Program-made: the position numbers and the translations under genes
The notes under the pieces: model-generated
What the model was told of the DNA's origin: nothing
What the model saw: only the letters and a program-made list of their open reading frames with translations
Database searches by the model: none
Origin: a virus
Lineage: Duplodnaviria; Caudoviricetes
Strand: one strand, 5' to 3'
IMG/VR virus record: IMGVR_UViG_3300030433_000856
Span: 1 to 59,509 of that record
Length of the DNA: 59,509 nt
In this document: positions 47,965 through 48,272 of the stretch, piece by piece
How the letters are laid out: each line of letters opens with the position of its first letter
Position numbering within the stretch: the first letter of the stretch is position 1

Positions 47965-48176
47965 TTATGAGCAAATATAAAAGTTTGTTGATGGATAGAG
48001 AACAAGAATTAGATCGTAAGATTAATCTATTCACAAAACGAAAAGATAAAGTAGCAAAACTATTTAAAACTTTACCGCCATCAGTTTGGTCACACAATTT
48101 TTGGATGGAAGTAGGTATTAAATTAGAAAAAGAAATTAAGTTAATGAAGTTAGAGAAAACTAATATTAGTTATTGA
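47955..48176 (+). CDS. Small hypothetical protein (start probably 47967)
   Basis: GGAG precedes the second Met. Confidence 0.65.
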   Translation: MEIVMSKYKSLLMDREQELDRKINLFTKRKDKVAKLFKTLPPSVWSHNFWMEVGIKLEKEIKLMKLEKTNISY

Positions 48177-48180
48177 TATT

Positions 48181-48205
48181 CCTTACTAGTCATAGTAAGG
48201 TTTTT
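48181..48205 (+). terminator. Intrinsic terminator of the early island
   Basis: CCTTACTA-GTCA-TAGTAAGG-TTTTT. Confidence 0.8.
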
Positions 48206-48207
48206 AT

Positions 48208-48272
48208 GGTCGTTTTTTTAACGATTCCTTTGTTGCACTGACCAGTTTTGTCGCTGGTCGGTGCGTTTAGTT
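48208..48272 (+). ncRNA. Candidate small RNA with anti-RBS seed
   Basis: Upstream TTGATA-17-TAAGGT; 5' hairpin, TTCCTTTGTT, then an 11-bp GC-rich hairpin. Confidence 0.4.

Follow-up and report, generated by a model that had tools for sequence, protein, structure and literature searches.

We analysed a structured intergenic element in the virus record IMGVR_UViG_3300030433_000856 of IMG/VR (Duplodnaviria; Caudoviricetes). The window, by which we mean the whole stretch of 59,509 nucleotides (nt) that was analysed, is a 59.5-kb virus record with packaging and structural genes of the podovirus type, a DNA polymerase, a primase, helicases and an ardC-like anti-restriction gene; a phage RNA polymerase was not detected among the window proteins. 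The element fills a spacer of 104 nt (48177-48280) that separates an open reading frame (ORF) of 73 amino acids (aa; 47955-48176) from a 136-aa gene for a putative nuclease (48281-48691). An earlier annotation made from the sequence alone (the original prediction) had placed here a candidate trans-acting small RNA of about 65 nt whose seed is complementary to the leaders of dispersed early genes. We report that the element is a new RNA motif, supported by covariation, without an Rfam family and bound to a fixed genomic junction, and we are very confident that its conserved plus-strand RNA structure is real. The parts of the element in the window are the following:

48165..48182, plus strand: invariant 5' block ATTAGTTATTGATATTCC, which covers the end of ORF 47955-48176 with its final codons and TGA stop (48174-48176), as well as TTGATA (48173-48178)
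48173-48178, plus strand: −35-like hexamer TTGATA, overlapping the TGA stop 48174-48176
48181..48200, plus strand: hairpin H1, CCTTACTA/TAGTAAGG, 8 base pairs (bp) with a 4-nt loop, terminator-like for the upstream small-gene operon
48196-48201, plus strand: −10-like hexamer TAAGGT, at a 17-nt spacing from TTGATA and on the 3' arm of H1
48208, plus strand: purine at which transcription is predicted to start, 7 nt past the −10-like hexamer and 0-1 nt before H2
48209..48225, plus strand: hairpin H2, GTCGTT/AACGAT, 6 bp in the window, with which the predicted RNA would begin
48225-48234, plus strand: seed of the original prediction, TTCCTTTGTT, between H2 and H3
48226..48235, plus strand: invariant core UCCUUUGUUG, resembling an anti-Shine-Dalgarno (anti-SD) sequence and complementary to CAACAAAGGA
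48235-48245 and 48254-48264, plus strand: hairpin H3, GCACTGACCAG/CTGGTCGGTGC, an 11-bp GC-rich stem with one G-U pair, candidate terminator or attenuator
48265..48280, plus strand: variable tail GUUUAGUU and Shine-Dalgarno (SD) sequence AGGAA (48273-48277) of the nuclease gene, the tail differing in sequence and length among relatives

On reading the sequence, the TTGATA-17-TAAGGT arrangement, the terminator-like H1, H2, the seed and H3 were all found where the original prediction had placed them. The extent of the seed needs a small correction: TTCCTTTGTT does lie at 48225-48234, but U48225 pairs and closes H2, which leaves the 9 nt from 48226 to 48234 as its single-stranded part, and G48235 is the first base of H3. 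The stem of H3 grows to 13 bp if two flanking G-U pairs (48234-48265) are counted. The plus strand of the spacer folds with −39.8 kcal/mol (z −7.9, none of 200 shuffles being as good), the minus strand with −30.4 kcal/mol (z −7.4). Both H1 and H3 are listed by a terminator scan; as the scan lists 4 such sites in the window compared to 3.0 expected, this listing is not significant in itself.

To describe the distribution of the element we label loci with L and genomes with G; G001 and G002 are complete diverged relatives, and G003 is the genome of the L028 type. A protein-guided search gave 466 relatives of the nuclease gene, and the best 80 loci were examined. The same three-hairpin spacer precedes the nuclease gene in 25 of them (L016-L038, L082, L093), the nuclease being 58-100% identical to that of the window over almost its full length. 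Unrelated upstream sequence is found at the remaining 55 loci, including loci with a best local segment of 63% identity over part of the protein. The covariance model was applied to 34 of these 55 distant loci and found no element near the nuclease gene in any of them, nor in Pelagibacter phage HTVC023P. Scans with DNA patterns revealed more copies in viromes and marine metagenomes: 42 of the 100 loci L096-L195 are true according to the covariance model, all running to the nuclease ATG, and the remainder are chance matches. The loci L196-L252 were screened by the pattern and an energy filter, with L196, L216 and L223 also put to the covariance model. Bacterial and archaeal genomes gave 111 pattern stretches, and none of the 80 fetched matched the covariance model. 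One candidate of the first DNA pattern scan, L008, was rejected as a chance match inside an unrelated coding region. Within the window the element is single-copy, with 106 bits for the element and 19.5 bits (E 0.12) for the next-best match of the covariance model.

Rfam 15 gave no match at its gathering thresholds over the whole window, and at E<=10 the region 48100-48350 gave sub-threshold matches only (AilA thermometer, 18 compared to 81 bits; rli38, 17.4 compared to 49 bits). The window contains no tRNA or tmRNA. Its sole nucleotide match among deposited phages is HTVC023P, with 70% identity over 142 nt inside the nuclease gene, and the clade is one of uncultured marine phages related to HTVC023P-type pelagiphages. 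Our literature search returned no report of a pelagiphage small RNA. A transcriptome has been published for HTVC027P, a phage of the HTVC023P type (PMC12753301).

The structure was compared in 20 distinct versions from viral and metagenome contigs, whose neighbouring nucleases share 58-100% identity with that of the window; the versions are not independent and represent about seven structural types. Across H1, H2 and H3 97.0% of 469 cells are paired, and 13 of the 24 pairs show changes on both sides. None of 500 shuffles reached any of the structure measures, and in slid controls the paired share is 31-46%. Fitting the alignment to the covariance model favours the structure; H1 and H3 were, however, also predicted by RNAalifold, run independently on a plain MAFFT alignment, where 8 of 19 pairs are compensatory. 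The hairpins differ in the way they vary. In H1 all cells are paired and 4 of 8 pairs are compensatory, with additional G-U intermediates. H2 is paired in 93.7% of its cells, all 5 modelled pairs change on both sides, and its sequence and loop are variable while its position is fixed. For H3 the figures are 96.3% of cells and 4 of 11 compensatory pairs, with many G-U.

The versions also tell the strands apart. G-U or U-G pairs occupy 51 cells compared to 2 cells with A-C, and the plus strand is the more stable one in 20 of 20 versions (mean −37.9 compared to −27.8 kcal/mol). This G-U excess and the plus-strand stability indicate that the structure is selected in a plus-strand RNA and not in the DNA or in an antisense RNA. 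The original prediction had conceded that its seed might merely be the SD relic of a lost minus-strand gene. That alternative was rejected: no minus-strand ORF of at least 30 aa starts in the spacer, no start codon follows the minus-strand AAGGAA at a distance of 5-13 nt, and the distribution of G-U pairs speaks for the plus strand and rules out a structure of the minus strand.

Two blocks of the element are invariant, and both are single-stranded, namely ATTAGTTATTGATATTCC, which comprises the ORF end and the −35-like hexamer, and UCCUUUGUUG; all of H2 and most of H3 vary. The core UCCUUUGUUG is unchanged in 20 of 20 versions, with a mean unpaired probability of 0.59-0.88 in the predicted RNAs, and the proposed seed is the sole invariant single-stranded part of the structured module. 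The 5' block ATTAGTTATTGATATTCC is unchanged in all 20 versions but for one synonymous T>C, while the coding sequence just upstream diverges, and it occurs once in the window at 0 mismatches. Three roles for this region were tried and rejected. For pairing of the 5' block at long range there is one candidate only, an invariant 4-bp GUUA/UAAC formed with coding sequence of the nuclease, and it shows no covariation. For stop-codon read-through, or a selenocysteine insertion sequence, at TGA 48174 the extension differs in length and content between the window and L023, and the covariation of H1 ignores codons. A leader peptide was discarded as the 11-codon ORF at 48206-48241 is window-specific; in the L023 type its frame contains neither an ATG nor a stop.

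One conceivable function of the invariant anti-SD-like strand lies within its own transcript: the core could pair with the SD sequence of the nuclease gene, clamped by H3, and gate translation like a thermometer or riboregulator. The minimum free energy fold of the window version indeed pairs UCCU 48226-48229 with AGGA 48273-48276, and the same is seen in folds of the L007 type. However, the pairing spans only 3-5 bp, the distance from H3 to the ATG is 16 nt in the window and 21-26 nt in several others, and the downstream SD sequences vary (AGGAAG, AGGUG, AAAGG, AAGGAAG, GGAG, GAGGAG). The L028 type, which lacks a recognisable SD sequence, still keeps the core, and the thermometer match of Rfam is far below its threshold (18 compared to 81 bits). 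We consider such gating very improbable.

The same strand has also been considered as a boxA-like binding site for NusB and S10, with a neighbouring hairpin as boxB, in a processive antitermination system that would let RNA polymerase pass downstream terminators. As in the lambda nut and rrn boxA-boxB arrangements, a conserved single strand stands by hairpins in a promoter-proximal position of a phage, here with a pyrimidine-rich CCUUUG that follows a promoter closely and precedes long operons. The core has C4 and U5-U7 in common with the boxA consensus of gamma-proteobacteria, GYTCTTTAANA (PMC5725501); the match is nevertheless poor, 5 of the 10 specified positions agreeing and positions 1, 3, 8, 9 and 11 differing, with the reservation that this consensus may not be that of the host. 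Unlike boxB, the loops of H2 and H3 are not conserved. The late genes moreover need not be read from the element, because a separate promoter-like region lies between the nuclease gene and the gene of the large terminase (TerL). We regard antitermination as a weak explanation, with slightly less probability than the gating of the nuclease mRNA.

Turning to the start of the predicted RNA, every one of the 20 versions has TTGATA and TARGGT at a spacing of exactly 17 nt, and also a purine at the 7th nt past the hexamer, 0-1 nt before H2. The T at −7, which follows the H1 stem and lies outside H1, is invariant. The spacer between H1 and H2 varies in sequence, its length remaining at 7-8 nt. In the window the promoter pattern is found once compared to 0.07 expected. 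The RNA predicted from this geometry has 62-85 nt and would consist of the 5'-terminal hairpin, the core and H3.

The original prediction had likened this arrangement to a second site of the window. At 2640-2677 we find a clean intrinsic terminator, AGAGGACTtacaTAGTCCTCT followed by T9, which is overlapped by TTACAT-N17-TATACT ahead of ORF 2760-3380; a promoter role of the latter is putative.

To take the complementarity of the seed into account we counted its complement, AACAAAGGAR, in the window. The motif occurs 8 times compared to 0.94 expected, and none of 100 shuffles reaches 8. The sites are 2485(−), 5278(+), 16238(+), 17366(+), 35891(−), 46329(+), 47430(+) and the element itself at 48225(−). 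The matches that had been named before (the ardC leader, 2485(−), 17366, 46329, 47430 and 16238) are thus all present, and the site at 5278, inside ORF 5228-5896, is additional. Five of the sites are candidate targets:

2485..2495, minus strand: leader CAACAAAGGAG of ORF 2203-2478(−), behind TTGACT-N17-TATAAT, with the best duplex of the window (−17.4 kcal/mol)
17365..17375, plus strand: leader UAACAAAGGAG of ORF 17386-18252, behind TTGACA-N18-TATAAT, duplex −12.3 kcal/mol
35891..35901, minus strand: leader AAACAAAGGAA of the ardC-like anti-restriction gene (start 35884), with promoter-like sequence upstream
46328..46338, plus strand: leader UAACAAAGGAG of ORF 46347-47408, the first gene of the operon ending at the element, behind TTGACT-N16-TATACT, duplex −12.3 kcal/mol
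47429..47439, plus strand: ribosome-binding site (RBS) UAACAAAGGAG of ORF 47446-47760, inside the same operon and with no promoter in front

A strong promoter-like sequence stands ahead of four of the seven sites outside the element (2485−, 17366+, 35891−, 46329+). At 2485−, 17366+ and 46329+ the motif begins about 8 nt past the −10 hexamer and ends about 7 nt before the ATG. The ardC-like site 35891− is different in that promoter and motif are some 30 nt apart, with a hairpin in between. The hairpin in this 5' untranslated region (35902-35935, minus strand) is conserved, with GTGAGAcatttTTCTCAt in the window and GTAAGGcatttTCCTTAC in relatives, and stands just before the AACAAAGGA leader.

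The (A/U)AACAAAGGAG leader is found behind strong early promoters in three genomes, namely the window, G001 and G002, at about 8 nt from the −35/−10 pair and about 7 nt from the ATG of early-type genes. These promoters have near-consensus −35 and −10 hexamers (in the window at 17329-17357 and 46293-46320 and, on the minus strand, at ~35930-35990 and ~2500-2540). Operator-like repeats are present in their spacers; the window has TGTGATATGATTTGATATA there, whereas G002 has the palindrome CACATCTAGATGTGC. Relatives thus differ in operator type and agree in the leader AACAAAGGAG. Since the leader recurs while the operator-like spacers differ, the motif may itself belong to a cassette of promoter plus leader. 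The idea that the 5' block of the element is itself an early operator was rejected, as the operators of the window (TGTGATATGATTTGATATA) and of G002 (CACATCTAGATGTGC) differ while the block is identical in both.

A 14-nt seed was then ranked by RNAduplex against all predicted start regions of the window, G001 and G002. The early leaders head the ranking in the window and take most of the top ranks in G001 and G002. Start regions with −12 kcal/mol or below number 6 of 94, 6 of 98 and 5 of 82 in the three genomes, and shuffles of the full seed reach the observed count of duplexes in 6, 7 and 15 of 300 cases, respectively.

Among relatives the seed and the ardC-like leader change together. Immediately 5' of the core, the window and G001 have U, and their ardC-like leader reads GGAA; G002, G004, G005 and G011 have A, and theirs reads GGAU. 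A Watson-Crick pair is thereby kept, U:A in two genomes and A:U in four. A third clade with U before the core (the L108 type) has the ardC-like gene in none of 4 fragments. The motif and the element also occur together: AACAAAGGAR has 6, 4, 3, 4 and 2 copies in element-bearing records, one of the six in G001 being the element core on the minus strand, compared to 0, 2, 0, 0 and 0 copies in five near-complete relatives without the element. The early-promoter pattern TTGACA-N16-18-TAWAWT-N12-35-ATG has no match in 5 of 5 distant relatives and one in the window, and a looser pattern gives 0-6 matches per genome, with unrelated spacers.

These observations could also be read at the level of DNA. 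In that case AACAAAGGA, in either orientation, would be the site of a phage DNA-binding regulator, located at +1 to +12 of the early promoters and between H2 and H3, and the hairpins would be ordinary terminators. The same 10-mer is present at the early leaders and, on the opposite strand, in the element; the change from GGAA to GGAT (read on the motif strand) has occurred in both the element and the ardC leader, as in a co-evolving operator set; and a further conserved pair, TTTGTTC...TTTGTTC, is found in the next spacer. Yet the leader motif is largely explained as an SD sequence, the sites 47430 and 16238 have no promoter in front, TTTGTT is by our estimate a common hexamer in this AT-rich genome, and the regulator itself is hypothetical. 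The DNA motif is a serious rival to the RNA, though we judge it improbable.

Regarding the mechanism, we propose the following for the RNA. H1 would terminate the upstream small-gene operon, and a sigma-70-type promoter, TTGATA-17-TARGGT, that overlaps H1 would allow independent transcription of an RNA of about 62-85 nt; processing of a read-through transcript might yield the same product. This RNA would start with H2, expose the invariant anti-SD-like strand UCCUUUGUU(G) and end with the GC-rich H3. The exposed strand would pair in vivo with the (A/U)AACAAAGGAG leader and the RBS heading the early transcripts, which might block 30S binding and damp the translation of early genes. Transcripts passing H3 would carry the module as the 5' leader of the mRNA of the Hjc-like nuclease. 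We consider this trans-acting small-RNA model plausible and hold it tentatively; the architecture of the element and its invariant anti-SD-like strand fit it better than any single rival. The further step of the original prediction, one small RNA that could switch off all early cassettes, is conjectural. The idea that the ~65-nt RNA mimics the 3' end of the 16S rRNA, its anti-SD-plus-GUU strand out-competing the ribosome for AACAAAGGAG on all early transcripts, appears more doubtful to us.

Several observations weigh against the trans-acting model. The first group concerns the targets. The early leaders do head the ranking of the window, but shuffles that keep UCCUUU reach the observed count of duplexes in 39, 48 and 81 of 300 cases (window, G001, G002), and in G001 and G002 rank 1 is taken or shared by a non-early start region of the GCAA(A)GGGAAAA type. 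Because UCCUUU-keeping shuffles often suffice, most of the duplex signal reflects the anti-SD character. What GUU(G) contributes can hardly be separated statistically, and specificity for the targets does not reach significance once the generic anti-SD core is accounted for. The covariation of seed and leader for which the original prediction had looked to relatives does exist for the ardC-like leader, but it is a single evolutionary event and a shared, co-evolving DNA motif explains it equally. The other leaders remain GGAG, which gives an A·G mismatch in the clade with A before the core, and the ardC leader of the L028-type genome (G003) is different. The co-occurrence of motif and element is confounded by relatedness and may be one correlated clade character, because the distant relatives also lack the early cassette type.

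A second group concerns the transcript. The geometry of the predicted promoter stands in all versions, but its −10 hexamer is weak, matching TATAAT at 3 of 6 positions, has no TG extension and is absent from the list of the consensus scan. The conservation of the −35 hexamer could come from the end of the ORF and that of the −10 hexamer from the 3' arm of H1. A run of at least 4 U follows H3 in 4 of 9 tail variants (the L007, L023/L038/L147, L032 and L108 types), and as U-runs occur only in some types H3 is not a uniform intrinsic terminator. Five sequencing runs share 0.05-0.07 of the words of the region; the contigs of four metatranscriptome runs cover parts of the nuclease and TerL genes and none of 48137-48270, which speaks neither for nor against expression of the spacer.

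The tails bear on a further explanation as well. In the window the tail after H3 is UUU, and the L027/L167, L034/L223, L098 and L028 types have no U-run; the H3 tails of relatives range from UUUUUAA to CUUACUAC, and the H1 tails are U/G-rich and not U-runs. Several types being without a U-run after H3, read-through into the nuclease gene, and with it a role as 5' untranslated region, is likely at least in part. In many members termination can be no more than partial, and there the mRNA of the nuclease must carry the module as its 5' leader too. One may ask whether it does anything else. In a purely cis-acting junction element, H1 and H3 would be tandem partial terminators or attenuators and RNA-stabilising hairpins that shield the nuclease gene and those beyond it from the early operon, without a target in trans, and the core would dock a conserved host or phage protein controlling read-through, processing or stability.

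Such a role agrees with the constant position of the element directly before the nuclease ATG, always at the same junction, with the terminator-like character of both H1 and H3, whose partial U-tracts suit attenuation, and with hairpins that vary freely around an invariant single strand, as expected of a factor-binding site between structural clamps. The missing significance of a target specificity beyond the anti-SD core points the same way. What it leaves unexplained is the exact complementarity of the core to the commonest early leader and the covariation with the ardC leader; the docking factor is hypothetical, and the fixed promoter geometry would be a coincidence. We take this to be a serious rival, though on balance an unlikely one.

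Small antisense RNAs with a comparable task are known from phages. The c4 RNA of P1 and P7 and the sar RNA of P22 block the RBS of phage mRNAs with short exposed segments as part of the developmental programme, and Rfam holds a C4 family. The proposed RNA resembles c4 and sar in being a phage-encoded small RNA with an exposed segment directed against ribosome-binding regions. While c4 is cut from the transcript that it regulates within one operon, here one seed would face the leader of several dispersed early operons, and unlike c4 the element matches no Rfam family in sequence or structure. RsaE and RoxS of the Firmicutes are host-encoded small RNAs with multiple targets, CCC motifs repeated in loops and a clear intrinsic terminator. 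They share with the element a pyrimidine-rich, SD-complementary unpaired motif between hairpins that is the most conserved part; they differ from it in that the element is phage-encoded, has a single UCCUUUGUU strand and shows variable terminator quality. Small RNAs derived from leaders or attenuators such as rnTrpL, and those derived from 3' untranslated regions, exist both as a terminated small RNA and as a read-through 5' leader and can act in trans. Like rnTrpL the element would give a short RNA ending at a hairpin before a gene; unlike rnTrpL it holds no conserved leader peptide.

The functional logic would be that of RegA of phage T4, which is a protein repressor that shuts down the translation of early mRNAs by occupying their initiation regions (PMC3014915). 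RegA is a protein, whereas the proposed effector is an RNA recognising its targets by base pairing. If the model is true, one small RNA directed against a leader common to all early operons times the phage programme, a task performed by the RegA protein in T4; on the more doubtful reading as a mimic of the 16S rRNA, abundant uncultured marine viruses of the pelagiphage-like kind would possess an RNA-only, genome-wide switch from early to late translation. In a cautious reading the result is a covariation-supported RNA motif, new to Rfam, with a clear genomic address and a testable single-stranded core.

The genes on both sides of the element are the following:

47955..48176, plus strand: upstream 73-aa ORF, with ATG 47964 as the likelier start, its end overlapping the invariant block
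48281..48691, plus strand: 136-aa gene, its product a PD-(D/E)xK nuclease with weak likeness to Hjc; in all cases the element stands directly before this gene

The 73-aa ORF has no match in Pfam or PHROG; in L038 a homologous ORF of 78 aa, ending in ISY and a stop, stands ahead of the element. The nuclease gene is followed by the TerL gene (48913-50388). The nuclease, a resolvase in the original prediction, weakly resembles Hjc resolvases as judged by profile searches: 9 of 21 family members match Pfam Hjc at E<=1, the best with 0.002 and all below the cut-off, the window protein with E 0.17, and the top match of a profile search of the PDB is the Hjc chain 4tkd_A with E 0.52. Residues D34 and E47-L48-K49 are invariant and compatible with a PD-(D/E)xK site.

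The operon ending at the element appears to be a variable region. Genes between its early promoter and the 73-78-aa ORF differ between relatives (1161-2168 in L038), with ORFs of 116 and 335 aa in G002 and of 365, 104 and 67 aa in the window, so that the slot upstream of the element holds varying cargo. A small-terminase-like gene (45501-46016, minus strand) is divergent from this operon; in several distant relatives (L062, L073-L077, L081) the small-terminase-like gene lies on the plus strand directly ahead of the nuclease gene. Owing to this difference in orientation the small-gene operon and the RNA element look like an insertion with an inversion at the junction.

The spacer of 220 nt between the nuclease and TerL genes (48692-48912) is conserved blockwise, in 6 of 6 diverged relatives with 77% mean column identity, and contains an invariant TTTGTTC ... 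TGTTC pair at ~48726-48750. Covariation that would convincingly indicate an RNA structure is missing (−6 kcal/mol, 1 of 31 pairs compensatory). The spacer ends with TAAACA-N17-TG-n-TATAAA, and ATG 48913 follows 6 nt on without an SD sequence; we take this for a probable conserved promoter from which TerL would be transcribed late as a leaderless mRNA. The signal is also present in L038 and L032, where it stands before an extra 105-aa ORF.

A last observation concerns the ends of the record, 1-1958 and 57545-59509, which are 82% identical over about 1.96 kb. Both carry a phrog_37556 gene and a major-head-protein gene, the two head proteins being 93% identical. Two explanations are considered: the capsid module was duplicated in tandem across the circular junction and the copies diverged, or two strains were co-assembled at the contig ends.

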